Shown here in pieces: positions 4,171-28,593 of a stretch of 32,000 bases of DNA. Source of the DNA: Candidatus Saccharimonadota bacterium (GTDB taxonomy: Bacteria; Patescibacteriota; Gracilibacteria; BD1-5; UBA6164). The first letter of the stretch is position 1, and each line of letters starts with the position of its first letter. The position numbers and the translations under genes were made by a program. The notes under the pieces were generated by a model, which saw only the letters and a program-made list of their open reading frames with translations, made no database searches and was not told the DNA's origin. The DNA is taken from positions 480,001 through 512,000 of the forward strand of contig CP042461.1 of the NCBI GenBank assembly GCA_004563595.2, in the 5' to 3' direction.

Positions 4171-5334
4171 TTATAGCTGGTATTTTGTCCAGAAGTTTTT
4201 TCTATATTCTTCAAATTTATTTTCAAGTATAGCTTTTCTTGCATTTTTTGCGAGATGAATAAGGAAATGCAGGTTATGATAACTCATAAGTTGCATTCAT
4301 AGGATCTCATTTTCTAATATAAGATGCCTTAAATATCACCTGGAGTAATCTTTACATACCCTACATTTACATTCGTCATCTATAGGAGACGGATCTAGTT
4401 TATGTTTAAGATTTTTTATTTTAATACTTCAGTATGTTCAAAAAGCAACTCAATGCCTTCAGAGTCTTGTTGGTAATACGCAATCAAACATATCGATTCA
4501 TCTACTTATTCATTCTATAAGGTCTTCTGGAGTTCAAACTCACATCAAATATCTTGGTTTTTTTTCTGGAAGATTATCTTTCATGATATCAAGTACTCTA
4601 TACATGTCTTCTTTTGATTCTCAGACTGAAAGTCCTCATATAGCAACTCAGTGAGTATCTAGTTTTCAGATAAATTCTGCTGATTCTTTCCTGAGGTCAT
4701 CATAGGTAACTCACTGAACAATAGGGAAGAGGGCTTGTTCCTGGAGACCTTCTTGTTTTCTGAGTACATTATTTTTTTCTACTTGATCAAGACTTCTAAT
4801 AGCCCACCTATGTGTTCTATTCATAGCTGCTTTTGCATACTCATGTGTACTTTCTCATGGAGCACATTCATCAAATGCCATTATGATATCTGCTCAGATA
4901 TTTGACTGAATATTCATTACTTTTTCTGGAGTGAAAAAATGTTTTGAACCATCAATAAAACTTTTAAAATGGACTCAATCTTCAGTAATCTTTACTAAAC
5001 TTTCTTTATTTTTATATCCTCAGGTTGAAGTTTGTCAGAGAGAAAATACCTGGAATCATCCACTATCAGTAAGAAGTGGCTTATTGTAATTCATAAATTT
5101 ATGGGCTCCTCAAAAATGTTTTACCACCTCATCTCAAGGTCTGAGGTATAGATGATAAGTATTATTTAAAATAATATCTGCTCACATAGATTCTAGATCT
5201 TCATTTGTAATTCATTTTACGGTTGCTTTTGTTCCAACAGGCATAAATACGGGTGTCTCTATATTTCCGTGAGGAGTAGAAAAAGTACCGGCTCTTGCAT
5301 ATCAATCAGTGTTTTTTAGGTTGAATTTGAACAT
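4171..5334 (-). CDS. tgt: Queuine tRNA-ribosyltransferase (tRNA-guanine transglycosylase)
   Basis: 387 aa: ...[29 protein letters not shown]...GADIILNNTYHLYLRPG...LLTDSGGFQVFSL...MAFDEC...GVAIGGLSVGE...PRYLMGVGTPEDL...GIDMFDCVLPTRLGRHG...CKCRVC. These are classic Tgt motifs. The 1164 nt are in frame. Confidence 0.92.
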
Positions 5335-7533: not shown

Positions 7534-10500
7534 ATGGCTAATAATACTCCAGAAAGTTGAGTAGATGAGGGAAATGAGAAAATAAGTAAAAAAAATATAG
7601 ATAAAAGAAAAACATTTATTAACAATTATTTTAATAGCTTAGACCCAAAAGAAAAGTTCACTTTTTTGGATTCTTTTAAAAACGAAAAATATGTTAATTG
7701 AAACATTAAGTCTGGTTTTGAATTATATTTAATCAAGAATAAAGATAAATACATTTGAATAGATATTAGTGAGATATCTATAATTGATTTGAAAAAAATC
7801 TTGGCTCGTGATATATCAGAGTTGTCTTGAAAGAGGCTTGGTTTAAAAAAACACTTGATGAGTGAATATGATAACTTAGATGAAAGAACCCTTATTTGAG
7901 AGATTGAGAAAAAAGATATAAATGAATTGACGGAACTTATAAAAAATAAAAAAATGAGGCATGAATTTTTGTGACCATTTTTTGAAAAGAACAAGTGAAT
8001 AGAAGAATCAATCAAAGTAAGCTTTTTTGATAAATTAGACTTTAGTGAACAAGAAAAGCAAAAAATTCTAGAACTAGACGAACAAAATCAAGGGAGTATT
8101 TTACCTATCTTAAAGGAACTTAATGGGAGAAATAAAGCTATTTCATTATGAAGTACTGATGTAAATGCATTCGTTGATTTGTTAAAATTAGATTTTTTAG
8201 ATATTGATTTTAAAAAACAAGTTATATCTGATTTTTTACCTATTGTATCTATTTACGATGCTAAAAATATAGGTATTTTAACCGTAAAAGACGTAGATAA
8301 AGAAAAAAGAAAAAAAATTGAGGAAAGTTATGATAGGAGCTATATTCATGATGTTTGATTACAAAACTTAGTAGATTCTTTAAAAGAAGAATCCAATTAT
8401 ATAGATACAAAAGATTATTTAAGTGCTGAAAATGTTACTAAAATTATTGATCAAAATTTTTTGTCTAGAAAAATTGTAGAAAATTTTTCTGATAGTTTTA
8501 ATAATTCTTTGGATATTATAAAAAACAGAGTTTTAGAGACTTGACCTCAAAATATAAATGAACTTATAGTTTGATTAGAACAAATAAATACAAATCAAAG
8601 ATTTAAATGACTAGAAAAATTTAGAAAGGGTAATGTTATAAAATATATTACAAAAGATAAAGAAGGTAATCAGCAAATTTCATATTTAAAAATAGTATCA
8701 GAAAATGAAGAAAAGAAAGCATTCTGAACAAGGCCTATTTGACAATGAAATAAGATCTGAAAGAATAATAATTCTGCTTTAACGGTTAAAACATATTTTG
8801 AATTTTTAGATATTTTAAAAGAGCCATCAATTGAGCTGGAGTTTTTTACTACAAAAGAAATAGATGAACAAATAAAAGATCCAACGAATGCTTTAGAAAA
8901 TATAGGTTTCGAATTGTATACTCTAGATGATTTAGAAGATCTAAATCATAGAAAAGCTTTAGAAAAAAAATACGTAGAAAAATTAAAATGAGAAATAGAA
9001 GATTTAGAAAAAAAATGAGAAATGAGTTGAAAAGATGACGAGTCAAAAAAGCTTTTAGCACAATATAAAAGAAGATTAGAATTGTTATGAACTGAATCAA
9101 ATAATGAAAAATTTCTCAATTTTATTAATCTCCAAAAGTTAATAAAATCATTAGATTGACTAGATCCAGAATGAAAAAAGTATGGTTTTGAAAAGGGGAC
9201 TTTTATTGAAACAAAAGAGGGGTCTTTTGAGGTTACTTGAATAGATGAAGAAAAGTCAGAAATAAGACTCAGTTCGATAGCTTGAGAAGAGAGTCTTCCT
9301 TTTTCTATATTTTTGGATTCATTTGAACAAAATAATGCATACAGAGTAAAAAATATAGATAATTTCGAGACTCTTATTCAAGGAGAGAAAGGTGATAATA
9401 AAAAATGGGAAAATCACGAGTTTATAGATGGGAAATTTATCGCAAAATCTGTTCAGGATTGATCAAAAAAGGTAGATAAAACAGTAAAGTACTTAACTTC
9501 AACTAAAAGTGATACTGTGTTAGAAATTTGTTCAATTAATTGAAATAACGTAGCTGTAAAAGTTTGATCAAGAAAAAATATATGAGACTTAGAGGATGAT
9601 GAGAAAAAGAAGTATAAAAAGGATGAAAAATGAGAAATTTTATATATTAAGTGAGCTGATAAAAAGACTATAAGTCTCAATGAGCTTTCTCAATTTATCA
9701 AAAAAGAAGAACTAGATCCAAATTGGAAAACAGGGAAAACTCATGAGCCAGAGGCAGTTAAAGATTTACATGAAGATATAAAATGAAGCTTCTCAAGTAG
9801 GTTATTTAGCCGTATTTCCATTGCAGAAGCTCTTGCATGATGAAAAATGATGTTTGATTCCCTTGAAGAAACATTAAAAAAATGAAATGACCTACATGCT
9901 GCTAAAGTTGCTCTTGGTATGTGAAAGTTTTTACCAGAAGAAATAAGAGCTGAGCTGGAAATAAAAGTTGAGAGAGCAGAAGGGGATGAAATGGATAAAG
10001 AGTTAGAATGACTTGGTAAAGTTGATTCACCAATAGCAACCAAAAGAATACTTGGGTGGCTAAAAAATAGTGATACTCCTGAAGCGAAAAAAGAAGCATG
10101 ACTTATGTTTATGCTGTCTAAGTACTGAGTACTCTATGCTAAAAAATTAGAAGAATACAGGGGTGAATTTTTATGGTACCAAGCTTTTGGTTGAAGAATT
10201 GGAGATGAGTTATATTTAGAGATCAAAGCACAAGCTGAAGAATCAGATGTAACATTTTCTGAAGAAACACTGATGCATATATTAGTTAATAGGCAATGTA
10301 AAAATAAATTAAAACCGAAAAGAAGATCAAGATTACATAAAGAGTATGAATGAAAATGGAAAGGTTGAATCGATGAAGAGTTTGAAAAATGATACAAAGA
10401 TGCGAATAATAAAAGAACGGCAACAGATATGGTAAGGTGAGGGATGGAAGAAGCAGTTGATGGAACTATTCCTAACGCTATTTGATGGTTTAAAAAAGCA

Positions 10501-11541
10501 ATAGAAAGATGAGGAACTTTAGAGGAAATGAGTGAATGATTTTTCTCTCTTCTGTATTCATGAGCATTATATAATGTAGATCAAGCAACTTTTTTGAAAA
10601 TTAAAGGGTTATGGGATGGTGAATGAATGCCACTTATAATGACAAGATTCTCAACAAAAAAATCAGATATGGTTCTTTTTAATAAAGTAGTTCTTGACGT
10701 ATCTTTAAGGATGCAGGATATTTACCCTGAACTTGATGGGATTTGAAAAGCTGCACAATCACTTTTTAATAGAGCTCAAAAATGAGATGGAAAAGAATGA
10801 GATAGAATTAAAGAAACTCAGAATTTTTGGAAAAAATATGGAACTCCTCTTTCTAGAGCATTAAACTTTTCTAATAATGATGATCCAACGTATGCCAAAA
10901 CTGATAAACTCATTTTTCTAGAACAAGATAAAAATAAGAATTTTAAAAAATACTATGAAGATGTTCAATGATTTACCACTGAATGAACGTTTAAAAAAGA
11001 TTTTATGGATGATGCTTGTTGAGTAGTTGGTTTAACTTGATTAAATACAAATCAGTTGGCAAAGCAATACTTAAAATTAAGTCCATGATGACAATTGATC
11101 GAGGAAAGTGTCGGGGCAAAAGTCTGGACAGAATTTATGAAAGATATAGACTCCATTCCTATGAAAGACTTTCACGAAGATGGGGATAAAAATTTAGAGC
11201 AAAAAAGAAGATATTTACAAAAATTTTTGAGAGATCTTTTTTCAGCATTTCTATCTAACCATGCTTGAAATGCGTTATCTTATTATAATAAATCTACTTC
11301 AGAAATTGGTCAAGTATTGCAATATTGGAGTGTTGATTTAATGAGAGATCTTGATGGAATGTCCTCATCTGACATATCAGAAGGAAAGAAGTGAACAGAG
11401 CTTATAAATAGAGTAATTAATAAAATCCTTAGCTGAAGCACTTCTGGTTGACCCTCTTTTCAGAACCCATTAGATAAAGTGATATCATGATCTAAGCAAG
11501 CTGCTAATGATGCTATGGTTGATCCATTAATGGTAGCTTAA
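7534..11541 (+). CDS. Large (1335 aa) hypothetical protein with no recognisable domain
   Basis: One uninterrupted code-25 frame runs from ATG 7534 to TAA 11539-11541 (4005 nt apart, in frame) and contains dozens of in-frame TGA codons. It has its own promoter-like element and a strong terminator. The N-terminus MANNTPESGVDEGNEK shows no signal peptide. The protein is rich in Lys/Glu/Asp/Asn. Confidence 0.8.
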
Positions 11542-11547
11542 CAAAAA

Positions 11548-11580
11548 ATAAACCCTGAAAAGGGTTTATTTTTTGTTTTT
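11548..11580. terminator. Bidirectional intrinsic terminator
   Basis: ATAAACCCT (11548-11556), GAAA loop, then AGGGTTTAT (11561-11569), followed by TTTTTTGTTTTT and preceded by an A-run. It is shared by the convergent 1335-aa gene and the pilin-like gene, whose stop at 11566-11568 lies inside the stem. Confidence 0.75.
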
Positions 11581-12186
11581 CCAATTACTTAATATTGTCT
11601 TCAATTCAACTTTATGAATATTTGTGGAAGAGCGATCTCTCCATTGGACCAGACTTATAATCTCCATTTTTTCATCATTCGAAGTTGCAGCACCTCAATC
11701 AGTATCTAGGTAGTTAATTTTTATTTCTCTTGTAAACAGTGGAACTAAGTCTGTTCCTCAACTTTGAGTATAAAATCAATTTCAGTCAAGATATATTCTA
11801 TATGCATCTCTATAAGTTGCTACAGAGTAGGACCCATTTATTGCTCAGCTTAAGTACCACCTATCATTATTATTTTGATAGATTATATAATTTCATGATA
11901 TATCGTTTGTTGTACTTGTATCTCAAATACAAGTTGATTCATAATTCAAAGTATTCCAACAATTTTTGTAATCAGAAGAGAATAAAATCCAGTTTGTATC
12001 CCTTATATTTGTCATGGCTTCTATTCACTCTCTTGCTATTTGTATCGCTTGAATTTTATTCACAGTTGAATCAGAGAGCCTAATAGATTCTATGTATATC
12101 TTATACATTCATGTTATTCATGTTACAAGTATGAGCGTGATAACCATTGCTTCAACAATTGAAGTTGCTTTTTTTGAATGTTTCAT
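11566..12186 (-). CDS. Pilin/pseudopilin-like protein (class III signal peptide-like N-terminus)
   Basis: 206 aa. The N-terminus MKHSKKA/TSIVEAMVITLILVTGITGMY resembles a prepilin leader plus a hydrophobic alpha-helix with Glu at +5. It is atypical in having Ala rather than Gly at -1 and Thr rather than Phe at +1. The 621 nt are in frame. Confidence 0.6.
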
Positions 12187-13364: not shown

Positions 13365-13451
13365 AATTGCGTTAGGTTGGAACTTTACATTTTTGGGAAA
13401 GCATATAGACTATTGCACATATATTTTTATATTATTAAGATTTATTATTTC

Positions 13452-15035
13452 ATGAGAAATCTCGTTTTTAGATTATTTTTTATTGTTATATTTTGAGCAT
13501 TATTATTTTCATATATTTTTCCATGGAATTCATACAATATTGAAGTTCCATTTAGTGGAAAGGATTATAAATTATGACTTGATTTACAAGGGTGAATTGA
13601 ACTTGATTATAAAGTTGATTTAGAAGAAGTAAAATTAGAAGAAGGTTATAATAAAACGAAAGAAACAGAAATTATAGAATGACTAAAGTCTATTATTGAT
13701 AAAAGAATTCAAAGTTTAAACATTAATGACTCAGTTCTTACATCAGCAAGTTATGCTGGAGAACAACATATCATTGTTCAAATTCCATTAAAGTGAAATG
13801 ATTCTTTAGAAAATAATGAAAATATTCAAAAAGCAAAAGATGCTATTTGAAAAGTAGTAAAAATTGAGTTTAAAGAAAAAAGGACTGAAATATCTGACGC
13901 TGATATAGCTGAAAGAAAAGTACTTGCAGAAAGTGCTTTGAAAGAAATTAATACAAGTCTATATAATTTTACATTAACGGCTGATAAATTTAAGCTCGCA
14001 TATGAAAATGTAGAAATCTGAGAAACAGAAAATGTTTCAGAAATATTTGAAATAGAAACTCCTGTTTCAAAAGAAATTATTGATACACCAAATGGATATT
14101 TAATTCTATCAGATTTAATTGATAATAGGTATAGTTATATATTTATATCTAAAACTCCTTCAAATTGGCAAGCTGCAAAAGATAGTAAATGAAGAATTTT
14201 AAATGATACATATTTTGTAAACTCTTCAGTTCAATTTAATGAGGCATTTCAACCAATGATAGAGCTTGTATTTAATTCTGAATGAACTGAAATCTTTGGT
14301 GAGCTTACATCAAGACTTACAGGACAACAAATTGCAATATTTGTTTGAGGAGAGTTACTAACAGCTCCAAATGTTAATGAACCAATTTTAACTTGAAAAG
14401 CAGTTATTACATGAAGTTATACAGCTGAAGAAGCAAGGAAACTTTCAACAGATATCAATACATGAGTTGTACCAGCCCCAATTTATCTTACAAGTGAGAA
14501 GACAATTGATTCAAAACTATGAGCAAGTTCATTAGAAAAACTTATTATCGCTTGAGTTTCTGGATTCATCATAATTTTTATATTTTTGATTTTTGTATAT
14601 AGAGTTTGAGGTCTCATGGCTTCTATAAGTTTATTTTTATATATAATTTTAGTTCTTACTATCATAAAAACATTAGGAATAGTATTGACACTTGCTTCAA
14701 TAGCAGGTCTTATTCTCTCTATTGGTATGGCAATTGATGCAAATATACTGATATTTGAAAGAATTAAAGATGAATTAAAAAAATGAAAAGACTTAGAAGA
14801 ATCTACAACTATTTGATTTAAAAAATCATGGACTGCTATTTGGGATTCGAATTTTACATGACTCATTGTAGCTCTTATATTATTTATATTTGGTGTAAAT
14901 ATTATTAAAGGGTTTTGACTTATGCTTGCAATTTGAATTGTAGTATCATTATTTTCAGCAATGTGGATAAGTAGAATTTTACTCATTCTTATTTCTAAAG
15001 TAGTAAAAGATAAGAAAAACTTTATAGGACTATAA
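13452..15035 (+). CDS. secD: Protein translocase subunit SecD
   Basis: 527 aa. There is an N-terminal TM segment (MRNLVFRLFFIVIFGALLFSYIF) and the hallmark LGLDLQGG, with TGA at 13575-13577 and 13593-13595. Also seen are ...QQIAIFVGGELLTAPNV... and C-terminal TM bundle motifs LASIAGLILSIGMAIDANILIFERIKDE. Confidence 0.9.
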
Positions 15036-15053
15036 AATAATAGTTTATCAATC

Positions 15054-15088
15054 AAAAAAACAAGAGTACTTTTACTTTTGTTTTTTTT
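15054..15088 (+). terminator. Intrinsic terminator after secD
   Basis: An A-run, then CAAGAGTA (15061-15068), loop CTTT, then TACTTTTG (15073-15080, one G-U pair), then T8. A TATAAT box at 15103-15108 follows, about 23 nt before the next ATG. Confidence 0.6.
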
Positions 15089-15130: not shown

Positions 15131-16690
15131 ATGAAGATGACCTTACTAAAAATCCTGTTTGCATTTTCTATATTTACATGACTTATTCTGGGGGTATATT
15201 CATTTTCACTCTTATCTTGACAATGAAATGACGATACAGTAGCTTCGACAAGTGTAGATGATACCTATATACTTGATGACTCAAATCAATGAGTAAAAAA
15301 TCAACTTACCAGTAAATTTTCTTCAGATTATTCAAGTTGAAAAAGACTTGTAATAACGCAACCAGATACATCATGATCATGATTTATTGTTTCAGAACAA
15401 TACGGAGATTTTTATATAAAAAATGAAATTACCTTAACAAAAGATGCTGTAATGTCTCCTTCTTGTTCTACAACAGAATCTGTATCATATAGTTTTTCAG
15501 GAACACTTGAGAGTCCTTCATGGTGAGAAGTCTCTATTACGAGTTCATCGTACTATTGTCCTGCATCAAAAAAATTCTTCCTTCCTCTTTATTCAGATGT
15601 TATTTGATTTATATCAATTTCAGCTACTGGAAGTAAAACTGTAATAACTGGAGTACAAAGTTCAGAGGATATAGCAAAAGATATAGCTGACTCAGCGATA
15701 TTTAATAGCAACAAAGTAAGTGTTTCATGACTTACTTCTAGTAAAGATATATCATGAACTCAATCAGAGTTAAGTTTTGACTATTCTGACTCTGAAAATA
15801 GTCAAAAATTTGTAAATATTGATTATGATATAGCGTCGAAAAAAGCGAATTTTGATTTAGTAATAAATAAAAATATTGCAAGATTAACAAGTTGATTGAC
15901 TCCTATAAACAATAACAGTAGTGCTTTAACGTGATTTTCTCAAGATTTACATTATTATGATTTCTCATGAGTAGCAGCTGCTACATCTCAAAATGAACAA
16001 AATTTTTGAAGAATCCTCACTGTTTGAAATGGATGAGCATGAGACACAAGTTTTAATAAAATGGTAGTAGCTGGTTCAAAGACCCTTATTGTAAAATGAT
16101 GAAACGTATATATCAATGCAGATATATATAATACTTCTGATGTCAGCTTACTTGTGATAATTGTTAAAAAAGATTCAACAAATAAAAATAATTGATGAAA
16201 CATTTATATTGATCCAAAAGTAACCAATATTGATGCAGTATTAATTGCTGATTGAAGTATCTTAAGTTATAATTCATCTGTATGAGTTTTAACAGCTTCA
16301 AATTCATCTCATCTATCTTCACTCACTAAACAGCTTCTTATATATGGCTCTATTTCAACGAAAAATACAATTTGAGATGATAATGCTCCGTATTGATCTG
16401 ATGGGTATATCGCAAATGGAGAATGAGTAGATCAACTTTATAATTTAGAATACCTACGAGCTTTTGAAGTAGAGAAATCTAATGATATAGATGATGCATT
16501 ATTTTGTTACTGATTAAGTGATATTGCTTCAAAATGAGGAGAAGAATATGCTTTTGCATGAAAAAAGAGATGTTATATAACTGACTCTGTAGCTTCTGGA
16601 CTTAGATCTACTGAAAAGGTTTCAGCTCTCGTAATTGAATATAATCCAAGAATAAGCTTGAATCCACCGAAAATATTACAAAAATATTAA
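15131..16690 (+). CDS. Secreted or membrane-anchored hypothetical protein (519 aa), first gene of the A/B array operon
   Basis: The code-25 frame runs from ATG 15131 to TAA 16688-16690. The N-terminal hydrophobic leader is MKMTLLKILFAFSIFTGLILGVYSFSLLSG. The body is Ser/Thr/Asn-rich with scattered Cys. I recognised no family. Confidence 0.75.
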
Positions 16691-16717
16691 TTTTATATTT
16701 TAATTATAGATATAACT

Positions 16718-17725
16718 ATGCTTACAAGTTTCAAAAAATATTTGTTATGATTTATAATAGGACTTTCACTTATATGAAGTGTTTCTTACGCAGCAAATAA
16801 TGGAAGTATATGAGCTTTATTTATAGATATAGCTTGAAACTGGAAACTCATGTGAGACGACGTTCAAGATAGTACAATAGATACATCTGAAATTCAAGAT
16901 AATTCAATTGTGAGTGCAGATATTCAAAATGAATCTATTGAATGAATTGATATTAAAGATGGTACCATTGAAGCTGCAGACCTAGCAGAAATATATATAA
17001 ATTCTACATGAACGTCATTAGATTCAGAAATGTTAGACTGACTTGATAGTACAGATTTTTATACACAAGTCTGAAATATCCAAATAACATCTACATGAAT
17101 TTCAACAAATATTATTGAATTAGATGAGATAATACTATGAGGTGTATCGATTACAGGTGCCTTACTTACCCCTCCTTCTGTATGTACAGATAACGTATGG
17201 TCACCAAGTAGCGCTGAGACTTGTTCAGGAATTTTTTTTACTCAAACAAGTAATTGTTGAGCTACGAAAACTGGAATATGAATAAAAACTTGTCCAGGAC
17301 CATCAAATACTAATTTGGTAATAGGGGTTCCTAAAATTGCTGTAACAGCTGGAGCGAAAATTGATTCTATGATGTATGGAAAGTTTCAAATAAAAGTGGG
17401 ATGTATAGATGTAGATGTTACTTGTACTGTATGATGAACTTGTATGATTTGATGGAATACAATTGGCATGACAGATAATCCATTTTACTTAGATTCTGTT
17501 ACAGTATTTAATGAAACATCCACTATCACACCTTGACAAGCTGCTACAAGTTCTATACATACGAGTTCTGATACAGGAGCTGAATTTACTTGTGTGGTAA
17601 AGTGGGATACAGCTGATAATATGATCAAAGTATATTGAAATGTAGAATCTACTACTTGAACCTATAATACTTATCAAAAGGAATGAGATGTAGCCAATGC
17701 AGTTGCCTGGTATATTTTAGATTAA
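16718..17725 (+). CDS. A1: secreted tail-fibre-like protein (335 aa), paralog family A
   Basis: Signal peptide MLTSFKKYLLGFIIGLSLIGSVSYA/ANNGS. It has four ~10-aa repeats (xDxSIxxxDI), an LDGLDSTDF motif, a Cys motif VCTDNVWSPSSAETCSGIFFTQTSNCG, a variable middle, and a conserved end CVVKWDTADNMIKVYG...AVAWYILD. In frame, TAA at 17723-17725. Confidence 0.8.
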
Positions 17726-17744
17726 TTTATTATAATGAAAAATC

Positions 17745-18233
17745 ATGTTTAAAAAAATATTATGTTCTACGTTTTTGCTATCTACTATTTTTAATTTCAC
17801 TTATGCAGAAGAAATAAAGAGAGACATAGTAGAATTACAAGAGAGATATATATCAGGAGAGATTACTGAAGAAGAAAAAAGTATTTTAAGATCGGTTTGA
17901 CTTATCCAAGATAAAACTCCATCAGAACAATCAGACGGTTATTTAGAAAATATTGATGACACTCAATACTATATTGATAATTCTACATGAAAAAAAAGTA
18001 TAATAATGACTTTTGATGATGTAAGTAAAAAAAATAATGCAGATAAACTTAAGGAATACGAAAAAATGAAAGTACTTATTTGAGAAATGAAAATGGAAAT
18101 TTCAGAAGAACTCCTTAAAAAGCAAAATATAAAAAATGAAACGGTTCATATGAATTATTTATTATGATTTATGTTTATAGTAGCAATTTTAAACTCCCTA
18201 TGAATTACATATCTAATATTACAGAAAAAATAA
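17745..18233 (+). CDS. B1: 162-aa protein with signal peptide and C-terminal TM anchor, paralog family B
   Basis: The N-terminus is MFKKILCSTFLLSTIFNFTYA/EE..., followed by a charged ectodomain. The C-terminus is YLLGFMFIVAILNSLGITYLILQKK. It starts 19 nt after the A1 stop. Confidence 0.75.
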
Positions 18234-18258
18234 TTTTATTTACTAAGCTTATAATTCA

Positions 18259-19233
18259 ATGCTTACAAGTTTCAAAAAATATTTAGTATGATTTGTAATA
18301 GGACTTTCAGTTGTATGAAGTGTTTCATATGCAACGAATAATGGGAGTATATGAGCTTTATTTATCGATATAGCTTGAAATTGGAAGCTCATGTGAGATG
18401 ATATACAAGATAATACTATAGATAGCTCTGAAATAGAGAATAGTTCTATATTAGGCATTGATATTCAAGATGGATCTATAGAATGAGTTGATATTCAAGA
18501 TGGAACTATAGAAGCGGTAGATTTAAAAGACATTTATTTGAATTCTAGCTCAATTGCATTAAATTCAGAAAAATTAGATGGTTTGGATAGTACAGATTTT
18601 TATGAACAAGTATGAAATGTTCAAATAACGTCCACTTGAATCTCAACTAATACTATTGAATTAGATGAAATAATACTTTGAGGTATATCTATTACAGGTG
18701 CTTTAACTACCCCGTCTGCTCCTACGGTTTGTGTGGATTATACGTGGTGACCAAGTACAGCTGAATATTGTTCAGGTGTTTCTTTTGTTCAGATAAGTAA
18801 TTGTGGAAATCCTAAACCTATGTTCTGAATAAAAGATTGTACGGTACCATCAAATCTAACATTTGGAGTTACCAAGAATTTTTTCACGAGCGCACCACTT
18901 GCAAAAGTTGGATGTGTAGATGTTGATATTGCATGTGCCACTCCATGAGTGTGTACTGTTTCATGGAAGTGAATAGGGGTTATATGATCTATATGGCCAA
19001 GTATGAATGTTTCGAGTGATATGTGAACTGCAATTCTGCTACTTTGACAAACAGTTGAAAGCCCCGTTGTGTTGTATTACACGTGAGCAGAAAATTCCTG
19101 TGTTGTAAAATGGGATTCAATAGATAATAATATTAAGGTATATTGAAAAGTACAAAATTACTGAGATTATTGGACCTATCAGAATTGAATTATTGGAACA
19201 CAAAGTGCAGTTGTTTGGTACACTTTAGACTAA
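18259..19233 (+). CDS. A2: secreted tail-fibre-like protein (324 aa), paralog family A
   Basis: MLTSFKKYLVGFVIGLSVVGSVSYA/TNNGS... It has the same repeat stalk, LDGLDSTDF, the Cys motif VCVDYTWGPSTAEYCSGVSFVQISNCG, a divergent middle, and the end CVVKWDSIDNNIKVYG...AVVWYTLD. Confidence 0.8.
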
Positions 19234-19258
19234 TTTTTTATATCATAACTATAGTAAT

Positions 19259-19747
19259 ATGTTAAGAAGATTTTTATGTTTTTTATTTGTATTAGCTAGC
19301 ATCTGAACTTTTGCATATGCAGAAGAATTGAAATATAATACGGTTGAATTAAAAGAAAAATTTGATGCATGAGAAATAAGTGAGGAAGAAATACAAAATA
19401 TTATTTCAGAAAGTTTAAATGCTGGTTGATCACCATCACTAGATCCCGAGGGAAAATTAGAAACTATTGATGGAGTTGAATATTATATTGATATTAAAAC
19501 ATGAGAAAAAAGTATTATTTTAACTTCTGATGAAGCAAATACAAAAAATCACACTACTATCATTAATAAATATGATGGACTAGAAACTCTTATTTGAAAT
19601 ATGAAAATGGAAGTTTTAAAGGAGATAAATATGAAACAAGATAAATGATCTCAGGAAAAACATATACAATATATGCTATGAGTTTTATTTGCTTTGATTA
19701 TTTTAAACTCGGCAGGGATAATATATCTTATCTTTAAAAGAAAGTAA
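19259..19747 (+). CDS. B2: 162-aa protein with signal peptide and C-terminal TM anchor, paralog family B
   Basis: The N-terminus is MLRRFLCFLFVLASIGTFAYA/EE... and the C-terminus is YMLGVLFALIILNSAGIIYLIFKRK. It has the same length as B1 and shares motifs YYID..TG.KSII and LIG.MKME. Confidence 0.75.
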
Positions 19748-19771
19748 TTTTTATTTATTAAATTGAGTTTT

Positions 19772-20719
19772 ATGCTTAACAATCTCAAAAAATATTTGAT
19801 ATGATTTATAATTGGAATATCACTTTGATGACCAGTATTATATGCTGCAAGCACTTGAAGTATAGGAGCTTTGTTTATTAAAGTGTGATTAGATTGGAAG
19901 CTCATGTGAGATGAGATTGAGTATAACACAGTTGATAGTTCAGAAATTGAAGATAATTCTCTATTAAGTATTGATATATTAGATGATACAATTGAGGGAA
20001 TAGATATTAAAGATGGGAGTATTGTATCTTTAGATCTACAAGAAAGTTATCTTACTTCTACATGAATAGCTGTTGATTCTGATAAACTAGATGGTCTAGA
20101 TAGTACAGATTTATATACAGAAGTCTCGAATGTACAATTAACGGCTACATGAATTATTACAAATACCCTTATAGTAGATAATATAGTGTTAGGTTGATCT
20201 TCTTTTACTGGCGTATCTGAAGCTGCTCCTACTTGTACTGATACTACATGGTGGCCAAGTACAGCGGAGTATTGCACGGGTACTGCTTATACTCAAACTA
20301 GTGATTGTGGAAATACTCAAGCCGCTATCTGAACTGCTAGCTGTTCACTCCCTTCTAATATATCAAAAACCACAACAAAAAACCTTTCAACTAAATGATA
20401 TTGGGGAGAATGAAATGGTTGTGTAGATGTTGATATTACATGTGGACCTATATGACAATCTTGTAATATTTCATGGAATAAGATAGGGAATGATTTTACT
20501 TTTAGTAATTTGGGTACAGTTAAAATAGTGAAATGAGATACTGTAGTAAGTTGATCTGTAGCATGAACATTATGAAATCATACATGTACTGTCAAATGGG
20601 ACTCAGTTGATAATCAAATTAAAGTATACTGAAAAGAGCAAAGGACAGGTATATATTGGACTTATCAAAAACAAGGTGCTTGAATAGTAAATGCAGTAGC
20701 TTGGTATATTTTGGATTAA
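19772..20719 (+). CDS. A3: secreted tail-fibre-like protein (315 aa), paralog family A
   Basis: MLNNLKKYLIGFIIGISLGGPVLYA/ASTGS... It has the repeat stalk, LDGLDSTDL, the Cys motif TCTDTTWGPSTAEYCTGTAYTQTSDCG, a divergent middle, and the end CTVKWDSVDNQIKVYG...AVAWYILD. Confidence 0.8.
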
Positions 20720-20756
20720 TTTTTTTGAAATATTTTAATTATATTAACAGTATTGA

Positions 20757-21479
20757 ATGCTTAGCAGTTTTAAAAAATATCTTATAGGATTTATAATTTG
20801 AATTTCATTTGTGTGAAGTATTTCTTATGCTGCAAACACATGAAGTATATGATCTTTATTTAACTACTTATCAGTATGATCTGAGAATGGACTTTCGATT
20901 ATTGGGAGCATTTGGAGGTTAGATGGTACAAAAATTTTAGATGAAACGATTACGAGTTATGAAATTCAAGATGGAACAATTACATGAGATGATTTAAAAG
21001 ATAGCTACGTAAACTCTACATGATGAATCGTGACATGAGATCTTACTATTATCGATAATTTATGAGTCTGAAAAAATTTAGCTGTAAATTGAAATGCTAT
21101 AATAAAATGAAAGTTACTTGTGAATTGAAAAGAAGTTTTAACCGAAGATTATTTTGATTTATATAGTGGGAGTAACACAATTTTTGATTGTATGAATCTT
21201 TGATGAAAATTTTTAGAAGTAGATTGATGACTTAAAATTTGTAAAATACCATGAAATAAGTGTCCTTCTGGTTGGAGTAAATATAAGAATTATTCAACTG
21301 CATGATCATGTGCTCTATGGGCTAGAAAATGAAGGTGTTGATGAGCAGGCTGTTATATATCATGATCAGAATGTAGAAATAATTGAAGAAGTTTTTCAGA
21401 TTCTACAAGAGTATATACATGTGACGTAAGAAAAGTTTGAACTTGTAGAACACCAATAACAGAGGTTTGATGCTACTAG
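20757..21479 (+). CDS. A4: secreted protein (240 aa) with a family-A leader and short stalk but a different, very Cys-rich C-terminal module
   Basis: MLSSFKKYLIGFIIGISFVGSISYA/ANTGS..., one stalk repeat (EIQDGTITGDDL), a beta-helix-like segment GDLTIIDNLGVGKNLAVNGNAIIKGKLLVNGKEVL, then 12 Cys in about 95 aa, including CKIPGNKCPSGWSKY. It ends at TAG 21477-21479. Confidence 0.75.
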
Positions 21480-21501: not shown

Positions 21502-21537
21502 ATAAAATAAAGACCACTTATGTGGTCTTTATTTTAT
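21502..21537. terminator. Strong bidirectional terminator shared by the A4 operon and murC
   Basis: A perfect 16-bp stem: ATAAAATAAAGACCAC (21502-21517), loop TTAT, then GTGGTCTTTATTTTAT (21522-21537). The murC stop codon (21518-21520, - strand) lies in the loop. Confidence 0.8.
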
Positions 21538-25587: not shown

Positions 25588-26847
25588 TTAATTATTAAAA
25601 CAGTTTCAATCACCCCTTCATTGTGAATCGCAGACCTTTTCTGCAATCTTTATCGTATCGGAGAGTGTGTTTATACTACTAGACAGATTGTAGTGAAGAT
25701 TTAAAATTCTTGCTTTTAATTTTTCAGTATTTACATCTTCTACTGCAGTGAATGGGATTTCTGATTGATAGAGCGTAGCTATATTTTCTTTAATAGTTTC
25801 GGTTACTTTGAGTTTATTGGTCTTTTTTGTGAGATCAGTAACATTTACAACTTCTTTATCTTCAAAAGCTTGAGTTAAACTTTCTCAAAAACTTTCTAAT
25901 TGATCTGCGACGCTTCCAATAATATTTGAAAAAGAATTTGTGATAAAATTATTATCAGTTGAGTAAAATCATTCAGAATTAAATTTTTCTAGATTTCATT
26001 GTATGATTGCCTGATTTTCCATTGATACTCATTGCCTACTGAGCTCTTTTCCAAGAAGCTCTTTTTCTTGAGTTCTGTAATCTGGATCTTTTGGTGATCA
26101 TGTAAGTAATGTCCAAGCCTCTTTCCATTCTTCAATTCATTTTTTTCAATCTTGACCTAAAAGTGTAATTTCTTCTATACTCTTTTGTATTTTTGAGAAA
26201 AAAGTTCATTCAGATGTGGTACAAGCTTCAAGTCAATATCCATAGTGCCTATTAAACTCTAAGTAAAATTTTCTTTCATCTATAAGTATGAGTTCTTGAT
26301 TTTTTACAGCCTTTTCTGATTCCTGAGTCACGATTGCTCTGTATAGTTGTCAGAGTTGAATTGTATTTTTGAGGAGACTTCAAACGATATCACTGCTTTT
26401 TCATATGAGTTCACAGTTATTTACTCAATCACAAGTATTATTTATTTGAATATTAGAATATCATTTTTTTTCGATTTTATCTAAATATGCTTTCAGTCAC
26501 TTTATTTCATTTTGAATTAATCTATGGTCTCTTTTTATGGGAGTTGGTATTTCGTTTGAAATAGGGAAGAGCACATAATAGTTAAATCAAACAAAGTATG
26601 AATCCCAATCAAGTGTTTCATTAGAAAGCTTGGTAAAATTAAGCCATACAGCATTCGGTACATTTTTTTTCTCATTTGATGACAATAATTCTGCATTTAC
26701 ATTTTTTACTACATTTCGTACATTTTTTATATATTCAGTTAATACTGGAGCTGGTTGATTTTGAATTAAACAAAGACCAGCTGCATGAGTTTGATTCATT
26801 CAGAAGAATATTATTCAGAGTATTATCGGAAAAATTTTCTTTAGCAT
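25588..26847 (-). CDS. Secreted hypothetical protein (419 aa)
   Basis: The code-25 frame runs from ATG 26847 to TAA 25590-25588 (1260 nt) and includes track ORF 26587-26799. Signal peptide MLKKIFPIILGIIFFGMNQTHA/AG. The C-terminus is ...KVCDSQGRGDGNCFNN. No known motif. Confidence 0.75.
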
Positions 26848-26871: not shown

Positions 26872-28593
26872 TTATCATACAGGAATTTCTTTCATTTGTT
26901 TGATGACATTTTGTAAGCTTTGTACATAATCAGATATGGCTTTTGAGAATAACTCTAACTCTATAAACTGATCTCAGAAGTCCTCCATAGTTTCATATTG
27001 TACTTTTTTTCAAACTGACTTTCAAATAAAATTAAGTTTTTCTTTTCGTTCATTAACTCTTTTATTAAACTGCTCATGTTTTATAGCTACATCAGTTATG
27101 TTTAATTCTGCAGAATCAAGAAGTGTCTTTAATTCACTCTCACTTTTTGAAAAAATAGAGAGATCATTCCTTCTTTTATAATCAAGGGAAAGCGAATTAT
27201 AGTAGGTTTCAAGCATTTTATCTTTTGAAAATTCACTTTTATCTTTATCTTCAGTTTCTTTTTTTATATCTAGGATTGGTACTGGTTTGGTTTGAATTTG
27301 AAAAGATATATGAAACATGTCAGCTAAATTGAGATCTTTTAGTCAGAGCTCAAAGTTATTTGTTGTCATTTTTGCTGGTGCTAGTGAAGTATTTGCAAAC
27401 TTCCTTAAGTGTTCATTTGATCTATTTAATAGGTATTCAATACTTATATTCTCTCCTCAAACCAACAATTTATGTTCATATACAACAAAATCTACAAATA
27501 TACAAAAGAAATTATTACATGGCCAAGCATCTCCTACCGTTGAATAAGATCAGTTATTTATAGAATCATTATCTGGATTATTATTTGATTCAGAATTATC
27601 ACTTTCATCTTGTTCTCTATTTTCAATAGATGAACTTTCTACTTGTGGTACTGAAATATTTGGGTTCTCTATATTATTTATAAGATTTTCTAGAGTATCA
27701 GGAGAGAATCAGTTTTGAATCTTATCATCATAACTACATATGTATTTATTTGAGTTTCACAGAACCAATGGTAGATTTTTATTCTCTTGATTGGCTTCTT
27801 CTATATTTTCATCTTCAGAGCTTTCAGAAGTACTCTCTGCTCATGAACTCACAGCTGGGGTGGGAGAAAAATTATTTTTATCATTTTTTATTCCAAAATT
27901 TCATGCGAGATAATCATCAATATTTTCATAATCAGCTCATTCATATTCTATTTTACTTGAGAAAATTATAGCATCTATTTTTTGTAAATCATCTACTAAG
28001 TCAAAGCTAGAGTTTTCAATGATACCATCACTGTAAAGTCAGATTTGAGAAATAGAATGAATTTGCTTGGATTTTTCTTCTGCTGAGCTCTGAGCAATAT
28101 TATGAATTTCTTGAATAGCATTTTGAATTTTATTTATTTTTTCTATTGATATACTTTGATCTTCTCACTTGCATTCATCTGTAATTTTTGAAGCTAACAC
28201 TCAAATATCTCAAGCAGATATTTTTTGTATATCAGATGATGAGATATTATCAATAATACATTTTCACACTCAATCAATTTCTAGTATTTCATTTATATAC
28301 TTTGCCATAGAGTCTTCTCATCACTTTAATTCATATTCATAATTTTTGAGTTCTAATTGCTCAAATCACTTATCAATATTTTTATATAAGTCTAATCATA
28401 AATCTTCGCCTAAAAAACTCCCATCATCTTGATATTCACTACTAAATCCTGTTACAGCGTTTTGAACGGATTCTATAGTATTACTATAACTAGATTCTGC
28501 TTTTGCAAAGTCATAAGAATAGCTTATCAATAAAAAGAAGATAAAAAGAAGATAAAAAATGTATGTTATTTTTTGAGACATAGAATGTTTCAT
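26872..28593 (-). CDS. Secreted or membrane-anchored hypothetical protein (573 aa)
   Basis: The code-25 frame runs from ATG 28593 to TAA 26874-26872 (1722 nt) and joins track ORFs 28396-28593 and 27022-27318. The leader is MKHSMSQKITYIFYLLFIFFLLISYSYDFAKA. It has acidic Ser/Asn/Glu-rich linkers and the motif GDAWPCNNFFCIFVDFVVYEH. Confidence 0.75.

Follow-up and report, generated by a model that had tools for sequence, protein, structure and literature searches.

We investigated a stretch of 32,000 nt from contig CP042461.1 of a bacterium of the Gracilibacteria lineage (hereafter called the window) and focused on a cluster of seven co-oriented genes, which encodes a protein of 519 aa (X519), four paralogous, putatively fibre-forming proteins (A1–A4) and two small membrane-tethered partners (B1 and B2). 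The window has a G+C content of 29%. With translation table 11 we observed almost no open reading frames (ORFs) of at least 100 aa, whereas ORFs read with table 25 tile the window. In Pth (GLGNPG) and MurC (GIGG), TGA encodes Gly residues that are invariant, and within the seven-gene cluster it accounts for 128 of the 199 Gly codons, which makes it the main Gly codon. Translated in this way, the ORF coordinates (Table 1) agree exactly with the gene order given by a first-pass annotation that had been made from the sequence alone. The genes are separated by gaps of only 15–37 nt, and the two flanking terminators named in the same annotation are supported by their fold energies and z-scores. A simple consensus terminator scan detected neither of these hairpins because their stems are AT-rich. 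Judging from orientation, spacing and flanking hairpins, the seven genes probably form one transcription unit.

Table 1. Genes, protein segments and boundary hairpins of the seven-gene cluster (positions in the window)
Feature	Position (nt)	Strand	Description
Upstream-boundary hairpin with T-run, 3' of secD	15054–15088	+	−17.7 kcal/mol, z −6.2
X519	15131–16690	+	519 aa; predicted to be exported and beta-rich; first gene of conserved module
A1 fibre paralog	16718–17725	+	335 aa; leader, N-module, 4 decapeptide repeats, LDGLDSTDF, Cys motif, head
A1 decapeptide stalk repeats	16862–16981	+	Residues 49–88; four in-register matches vs 0.08 in shuffles
A1 Cys motif	17183–17260	+	Residues 156–181, C-x-D-x-x-W-x-P-S...C-G
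A1 C-terminal head domain	17399–17722	+	GC.DVD..C ... C.VKWD..DN.IKVYG ... WY.LD
B1	17745–18233	+	162 aa; signal-like N-terminus, acidic ectodomain, C-terminal transmembrane segment (nt 18150–18221), basic tail
A2 fibre paralog	18259–19233	+	324 aa; ortholog fragment in L001
B2 membrane-tethered partner	19259–19747	+	162 aa; ortholog in L001 (phmmer 2.9e-59)
A3 fibre paralog	19763–20719	+	318 aa from TTG start; NCBI model from ATG at 19772 = 315 aa
A4 shorter paralog	20757–21479	+	240 aa; same N-module, 2 repeats, distinct basic head with 10 Cys
Bidirectional terminator hairpin between A4 and convergent murC	21502–21537	both	−29 kcal/mol on both strands, z −8.8 to −9.0

The recoded TGA is a practical trap for database work, as copies translated with TGA as Trp look like homologs of another organism in public protein databases. 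A3 corresponds to the NCBI entry A9Q91_02365. The entries P0001, P0002 and P0005 seem to be homologs of A1, A2 and B1 with 94–97% identity, but they are the same genes with TGA read as Trp; contigs encoding P0001 and P0005 were searched for and none was found. A copy of A4 (P0143) was translated likewise, and many entries of the X519 family share the artefact.

Modules of the A proteins and the X519 family

The four A proteins show a graded similarity: identity to A1 is 61% for A2, 53% for A3 and 35% for A4, whose alignment is confined to the N-terminal half. All shared elements listed in the first-pass annotation were found. The leader, in which we recognize a hydrophobic core (KKY-x-x-GFxxG) and a YA↓A site, is followed by an N-terminal module (N-module) that is invariant in A1–A4 (G-S/T-I-G-x-L-F ... 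W-x-L-x-G). Decapeptide repeats occupy residues 49–88, with four each in A1–A3 and two in A4, compared with a mean of 0.03–0.08 and a maximum of 2 in shuffled sequences. LDGLDSTD at residue 106 and a Cys motif at residues 155–183 are present in A1–A3, each of which contains eight Cys. The heads of A1–A3 belong to one family (GC.DV.IDC ... C.VKWD..DN.IKVYG ... WY.L) with four invariant Cys, for which we found no relative in Pfam, PHROGs or the PDB.

To follow these elements beyond the window, a profile of the A family was searched against 1.84 billion representative proteins and gave 908 matches at E ≤ 1e-3. The A proteins appear to be a mosaic of modules with separate distributions. We observed the N-module only at N-termini, in proteins of 80–525 aa (about 22 further cluster representatives), and all representatives inspected bear the Trp-for-Gly artefact of code-25 genomes; 3 of 25 N-module representatives carry a Peptidase_S74 domain at the C-terminus. 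The decapeptide repeats also occur in giant proteins of 1–4.7 thousand aa, and three of the five that were tested have a terminal Peptidase_S74. Multi-copy stretches of the proteins P0035, P0045 and P0058, all three of them S74-terminated, matched the A profile with E-values from 1e-33 to 5e-18, although repeat scores may be inflated. The Cys motif is elsewhere a widespread tandem repeat of ~40 aa, which is found among others in proteins of Bdellovibrionales metagenome-assembled genomes (MAGs). Pfam searches over this motif gave no TSP1 match (PF00090/PF19030) in A1–A3; in the database protein P0060 a separate TSP1 domain adjoins the Cys-motif repeats. Finally, we found the head of A1–A3 in proteins that have no N-module and in which nothing points to a recoded TGA; one of these belongs to a Nanoarchaeota genome. 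The kinship of the A proteins with tail fibres, which had been proposed in the first-pass annotation, gains support, as relatives with the same N-module end in Peptidase_S74 with the SDxxxK motif and the same stalk repeats are found in S74-ending giant proteins.

Searches of all seven cluster proteins against Pfam, NCBIfam and PHROGs returned nothing significant; weak tail-fibre matches were obtained to phrog_892 (E 0.01) and phrog_10316 (E 2.7e-4, with A4). Pfam also gave no match in the cluster proteins to the YadA-type outer-membrane beta-barrel anchor of trimeric autotransporter adhesins. PDB sequence searches with A1, A4, B1 and the head profile gave designed pentapeptide-repeat proteins or noise only. 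In agreement with the earlier assessment, these searches placed neither A, B nor X519 in a characterized family.

X519 is not an orphan: its family extends across Gracilibacteria and defines the three-part module described below, which recurs in the sampled Gracilibacteria genomes and metagenome contigs. Its sequence agrees in full (100% identity) with A9Q91_02340 from Ca. Gracilibacteria bacterium 28_42_T64, there are 27 other database homologs (28 in total), and we found the family at 40 genome loci. In code-25 Gracilibacteria it is a protein of ~500 aa, while its conserved C-terminal part closes larger proteins (900–2000 aa) next to topA in Peregrinibacteria, Peribacteria and a few Saccharibacteria. 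In seven loci of Peregrinibacteria and Peribacteria (L017, L018, L021, L023, L024, L026 and L028) the X519 C-domain ends exported proteins of 900–1300 aa, which always lie just 3' of topA and are not accompanied by a fibre gene; topA is also located near the X519 locus of L004, which belongs to Gracilibacteria. Pfam was uninformative on the large Peregrinibacteria proteins. The AlphaFold2 (AF2) model of X519 reached a mean predicted local distance difference test score (pLDDT) of 76.6 and a predicted template modelling score of 0.73.

For a closer look at export we compared 17 leaders and observed conserved small residues at −3/−1 (YA↓A, ADA↓A, AYG↓T), followed by a conserved mature N-terminus. 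Genes similar to signal peptidase I (SPase-I; GNSM.P[TA]L) adjoin the fibre loci of L006 (12041–12568), L047 (3006–3539) and L048 (3992–4516), while none was found in the window; these genes hint at a dedicated leader peptidase. The conserved −3/−1 residues together with the neighbouring SPase-I-like genes fit with leader cleavage. The core of the A leader is unusually conserved, with a GxxxG motif, 19 uncharged residues and a Kyte-Doolittle hydropathy of 1.6–1.8. Hence, the Sec-type leader that had been assigned to all A proteins is indeed shared by them, but its features are compatible with a cleaved signal peptide as well as with a signal anchor. Sec export of the A proteins is plausible and cleavage may follow; under either topology the fibre part would be located outside the cytoplasm.

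Gene order and evolution across Gracilibacteria

We translated the loci of relatives with table 25 and then searched them with the proteins of the window. A fibre gene with the N-module follows X519 in about 15 of 18 evaluable loci. The order X519, N-module fibre, small membrane-tethered protein was observed in eleven loci (L002, L006, L009, L010, L011, L012, L014, L016, L045, L048 and L051), the X519–fibre pair alone at a contig end in L050 and L053/L054, and a fibre 5' of X519 in L004; no fibre adjoins X519 in L008, L015 and L052. The fibres after X519 have the same N-module and decapeptide repeats as A1–A4, and their C-termini are unrelated between genomes. Peptidase_S74 tips with intact SDxxxK are present in L002, L004 and L047 (E 7e-18 and 3e-17), while other N-module fibres end in TSP1_ADAMTS (L011, 3e-13) or Lcl_C (L016, 6e-31) and the rest gave no Pfam match. 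X519 is the most conserved member of the module.

Two of these loci, L014 and L045, are syntenic with the window, with secD on one side and murC, pth, the Xer recombinase and map on the other. In L014, whose synteny covers the side with murC, pth, the Xer recombinase and map, one fibre of 486 aa and one lipoprotein are located where the window has six genes. In L045, secD and X519 (58% identical) are followed by an A gene (418 aa) whose head differs, by a B-like gene of 112 aa and by a hairpin, and in L001 the orthologs of A2, B2 and A3 are followed by murC, without A4. The A–B pairing is conserved in these two relatives, L001 and L045. Since L045 shows secD–X519–A–B with the same hairpin and L001 shows A2–B2–A3–murC, we conclude that the cluster was expanded in the lineage of the window from an ancestral X519–A–B state at the secD/murC site, to which the order in L014 points as well. 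The window thus contains an expanded version of a conserved three-part module of X519, fibre and tether.

Two further observations concern these loci. The hairpin of L045 (about 4520–4570) is almost identical to the terminator hairpin downstream of A4 in the window despite the X519 identity of 58%, which is an unusually strong intergenic conservation. A second family of small exported proteins occurs among the fibre genes of L006 (9906–10340 and 11580–12056) and L047 (1507–1962), with a conserved leader ..GY.LAGV...PTFASQISSNLVKGF and the motif LVGLDAGGKLPTD.IPA.

The third gene of the module differs in type between loci: about 11 of its products are marked by a lipobox, the one in L048 by an N-terminal transmembrane segment (TM) and those in the window, L001 and L045 by a C-terminal TM (type B). 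The B type is clade-specific and lipoproteins hold the same position elsewhere, and the conserved feature of the third gene is a predicted membrane tethering, not its sequence. B1 and B2 share 44% identity. Their equal length and overall layout are as first described, with a signal-like N-terminal segment ending YA↓EE, a C-terminal hydrophobic segment of 22–24 residues and a tail of QKK or KRK. L001 and L045 keep the TM motif LNS.G..YLI..KK. In the B-like protein of L045 the conserved TM FLNSLGLIYLIIKKK is combined with an unrelated ectodomain, so that between L045 and the window the B ectodomain differs where the fibre head differs, while the TM is unchanged. A TGA-aware DNA pattern of the B motif, which matches the window and L001, gave 0 matches in metagenome contigs. 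We also noticed that residues about 64–86 of B1/B2 (DG.LE.ID...YYID..TG.KS) resemble a single cell-wall/glucan-binding repeat of dextransucrase (9i2j), a match that is not significant (E 1.9).

Substitution rates were calculated for the A genes. The paralogs are old, with synonymous divergence (dS) of 0.75–1.3, and the ratio of nonsynonymous to synonymous rates (dN/dS) is 0.17–0.26 in the more constrained N-halves and 0.39–0.54 in the head halves; the A3 ortholog pair of the window and L001 gave 0.20–0.24. From these values we conclude that the A genes are genuine, that purifying selection acts on them and that their heads evolve faster. The set had been called 'diversifying', which is right in so far as the heads evolve faster than the N-halves, but dN/dS is below 1 everywhere. 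No reverse transcriptase was seen among the translated ORFs of the window, and no test for targeting by a diversity-generating retroelement was made.

The cluster is chromosomal and not part of a phage. Its neighbours are housekeeping genes (RlmN-like, SecD, MurC, Pth and Map) and a recombinase of the Xer type with conserved synteny, and no genes for phage structure, lysis or replication were found in the 32 kb. When 50,697 phage genomes were searched with the A1 stalk by tblastn, no match resulted, and TGA-aware DNA patterns of the N-module and the head, which match 4 and 3 times in the window, gave 0 matches in 2.9 million viral contigs. All of this is in line with the earlier remark that phage genes are absent nearby.

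Interpretation and comparison with known systems

Starting from the gene anatomy, the code 25, the module homology, the conserved synteny, the purifying selection and the non-phage context, the cluster is best read as a surface-fibre system that is peculiar to Gracilibacteria, encoded on the chromosome and not by a phage, and exported through Sec. By analogy, the A proteins would best be regarded as cell-encoded fibre adhesins with swappable tips, similar to the MAT (mosaic adhesive trimer) fibres of Bdellovibrio, and a use of the cluster as a tool for gripping host cells is plausible. We consider it somewhat probable that modular A fibres are exported and dock with their adaptor on X519, that B tethers or matures them and that the heads bind external targets. 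In this mechanism A1–A4 would be short paralogous fibres, each composed of a leader, an adaptor, a decapeptide stalk of the S74 tail-fibre-like type and a C-terminal head that varies between the fibres; a LDGLDSTD neck and a presumably disulfide-bonded Cys motif would be restricted to A1–A3, the head of A4 being distinct. The invariant adaptor could dock every A paralog on X519, which is encoded in single copy at the start of the cluster. For B1 and B2 we propose a type I membrane topology, in which the TM is conserved and the ectodomain varies; on the outer side of the membrane they may retain the fibres or bring about their maturation, a role that lipoproteins would take in other Gracilibacteria. 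The heads are predicted to bind surface structures of host or prey cells, and four A paralogs could provide several binding specificities.

Several points weigh against this interpretation. A1–A4 themselves gave no Pfam match to Peptidase_S74 at E up to 1, and with lengths of 240–335 aa they are much below known fibres. The AF2 monomer model of A3 (NCBI sequence P0003) is unusable with a pLDDT of 36.6, and trimerization, surface display and host binding of the A proteins are predicted properties. Because their hydrophobic core is unusually conserved with GxxxG, the A proteins may be signal-anchored instead of secreted. X519 itself lacks an anchor, its function as a dock is deduced from synteny, and a Foldseek search of its model against the PDB and BFVD gave no match at E <0.1. 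There are two B genes for four A genes, and hhalign of B against the lipoprotein partners detected no homology (probability 3%). Close homologs of the A head and of B were found only in this genome, L001 and (for B) L045; P0001, P0002 and P0005 had to be rejected as independent evidence because they are TGA-as-Trp readings of the same genes. Finally, the dN/dS of the heads is below 1, so that positive selection is not demonstrated.

The closest known system is the MAT superfamily of Bdellovibrio bacteriovorus, which is likewise cell-encoded. According to Caulton et al. (2024, PMC10769870), MAT fibres have a signal peptide, an invariant N-domain, a trimeric fibre and swappable tips, with S74 and non-S74 subfamilies. 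The A proteins resemble them in that a leader precedes an N-terminal module shared without change by all paralogs, the stalk is related to phage tail fibres, the C-terminal tips are variable (here S74, TSP1, Lcl_C and others without a match) and the repertoire is multi-copy, in an organism that has to attach to other bacteria. The Cys motif of A also occurs as repeats in proteins of Bdellovibrionales MAGs. However, the likeness is one of layout; no sequence link to MAT was found, and the PDB sequence search with A1 gave no MAT entries. The conserved N-module comprises about 25–45 residues here compared to about 130, beta-rich, in MAT, and fibre lengths are 125–660 aa compared to roughly 800–1000+ aa. 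An outer membrane is probably absent in the Gracilibacteria organism, as no PilQ was reported in the genome paper (PMC6851277). X519 and a membrane-tethered small protein are co-encoded here, while the consulted portion of the MAT study contains no such partners, and MAT fibres are described there as trimeric and surface-located, whereas both properties are predicted from the genes in our case. Because of the missing sequence link, the shorter adaptor and fibres, the probable lack of an outer membrane and the two system-specific partners, membership in the MAT superfamily is not established. A second comparison is offered by phage tail fibres and tailspikes such as the T5 L-shaped tail fibre and the K1F endosialidase, in which S74 (PF13884) is the intramolecular chaperone at the C-terminus. 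Proteins that end in S74 contain stalk repeats like those of the A proteins, and Gracilibacteria proteins with an identical N-module end in S74 with SDxxxK, but A1–A4 have no S74, no virion attachment domain and no phage context, and they carry Sec-type leaders. A1–A4 lack the S74 domain and the phage context that define phage tail fibres, although their relatives and stalk repeats connect them to these.

As to competing explanations, we kept a toxin–immunity system as the main mechanistic rival, since the covariation of B ectodomain and head fits a head-specific partner and an immunity protein equally well. If the cluster were an array of polymorphic toxins or bacteriocins, the A proteins would be effectors that are exported by means of a conserved delivery half and are toxic through their variable C-terminus, immunity would be conferred by the membrane-tethered B1 and B2, and A3 and A4 would count as orphan modules. 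The layout is typical of such cassettes, with a conserved N-half, a variable C-half, a small membrane protein directly 3', tandem cassettes and orphan copies; the B ectodomain changes with the head while the TM is conserved (L045 compared to the window), and the head of A4 is basic and Cys-rich. However, in searches of Pfam, NCBIfam and PHROGs neither the A heads nor B matched a toxin or immunity family, and relatives with the same N-module have tips for adhesion or fibre assembly (S74, TSP1, Lcl_C) and not toxin domains. Furthermore, A3 shares the head class of A1 and A2 yet has no B of its own, an arrangement that is kept in L001, and the conserved partner X519 is foreign to such cassettes and would stay unexplained. 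We assign this explanation a low probability. Similarly improbable, in our judgement, is a general envelope or structural component, for example S-layer-associated or wall-binding fibres that serve the cell's own surface architecture. It would suit the conservation of X519, which occurs in many of the Gracilibacteria genomes and metagenome contigs that were sampled and occupies a housekeeping locus (secD and murC, in others topA), the non-significant resemblance of the B ectodomain motif to a cell-wall/glucan-binding repeat and the S-layer and many extracellular proteins that the genome paper (PMC6851277) expects. Tip swapping, paralog expansion and faster-evolving heads suit outside targets better, though, and the heads are shared with a Nanoarchaeota genome. 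Both Gracilibacteria and Nanoarchaeota are thought to live attached to hosts.

The cluster could also encode accessory or tip proteins of a type IV or competence pilus, with X519 as a large, ComZ-like protein associated with minor pilins and the A proteins as its adhesins. This idea draws on the best Foldseek match of X519, ComZ of Thermus thermophilus (6qvi, probability 0.35), on a prepilin-type gene 3 kb upstream (11566–12186, − strand) that is syntenic in L013, on another pilin gene near the module in L011 and L012 and on the many type IV pilus genes in Gracilibacteria (PMC6851277, PMC11452946). The type IV pilus by which Saccharibacteria attach to their hosts (Xie et al. 2022, as cited in PMC11452946) is likewise a surface filament that has been proposed or shown to serve episymbiont attachment in the Candidate Phyla Radiation (CPR), but the machinery is another one. 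The cluster contains no pilus assembly genes, and X519, A and B have no prepilin leader (G/A↓F/M/T-x-x-x-E, Glu at +5). Moreover, the ComZ match is poor (E 0.28, TM-score 0.15), and the pilin-like gene lies on the opposite strand with rlmN and secD in between, so that we regard a pilus accessory as very improbable. Even less credible is a remnant of a prophage or tailocin tail-fibre module. The two weak PHROG matches and the S74 domains in relatives are what it can call on, against which stand the absence of phage genes in the 32 kb, the Xer type and synteny of the recombinase, the negative searches of phage genomes and viral contigs, the Sec-type leaders on the cluster proteins and the stable occupation of the same chromosomal site in relatives.

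Returning to the surface-fibre interpretation, it may be extended to a dedicated three-part surface organ of Gracilibacteria (X519 dock, swappable-tip fibres, tether), which would serve as a host- or prey-recognition apparatus, derive from domesticated tail-fibre modules and exchange heads with other lineages for which an episymbiotic or predatory life is assumed (Nanoarchaeota, Bdellovibrionales). In this full form the proposal is tentative and we think it rather unlikely to hold in every part; if it were true, the fibre repertoire of a genome would predict its host range. No representative of Gracilibacteria has been cultured (PMC11452946), and their hosts have been guessed from co-occurrence or shared repeats (PMC6851277). 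The module with its swappable tips therefore offers concrete, testable candidates for the way in which code-25 CPR bacteria (Gracilibacteria, Absconditabacteria) locate their hosts and stay attached to them: hosts or glycans could be sought with recombinant heads, and fibre repertoires could be compared across MAGs. It would also suggest a counterpart of the tail-fibre-like, cell-encoded adhesins of Bdellovibrio in a CPR member for which an outer membrane is improbable, with additional partners. The module is not mentioned in the genome paper (PMC6851277) or in the metaproteogenomic study (PMC11452946), and a search of the full-text literature for 'Gracilibacteria' with 'tail fiber' gave nothing relevant.

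Other genes of the window

Some further observations were made in the window outside the cluster. The prepilin-type gene mentioned above encodes a protein of 206 aa with the N-terminus KKA↓TSIVEAMV, Glu at +5 and no Pfam match; its syntenic copy in L013 lies beside rlmN/secD. Next to it, a protein of 1335 aa without signal peptide or Pfam domain is encoded at 7534–11541 (+), in the stretch with the strongest positive GC skew of the window, and a homologous fragment of it opens L013. Exported proteins of 419 and 573 aa without Pfam match are encoded at 25588–26847 (−) and 26872–28593 (−) and have syntenic copies in L014. The longest ORF of secD (13377–15035, +) begins with TTG, while the start seems better placed at the Met located 25 codons downstream (MRNLVF...), and the SecD/SecF Pfam domains were confirmed on the product translated from this Met.

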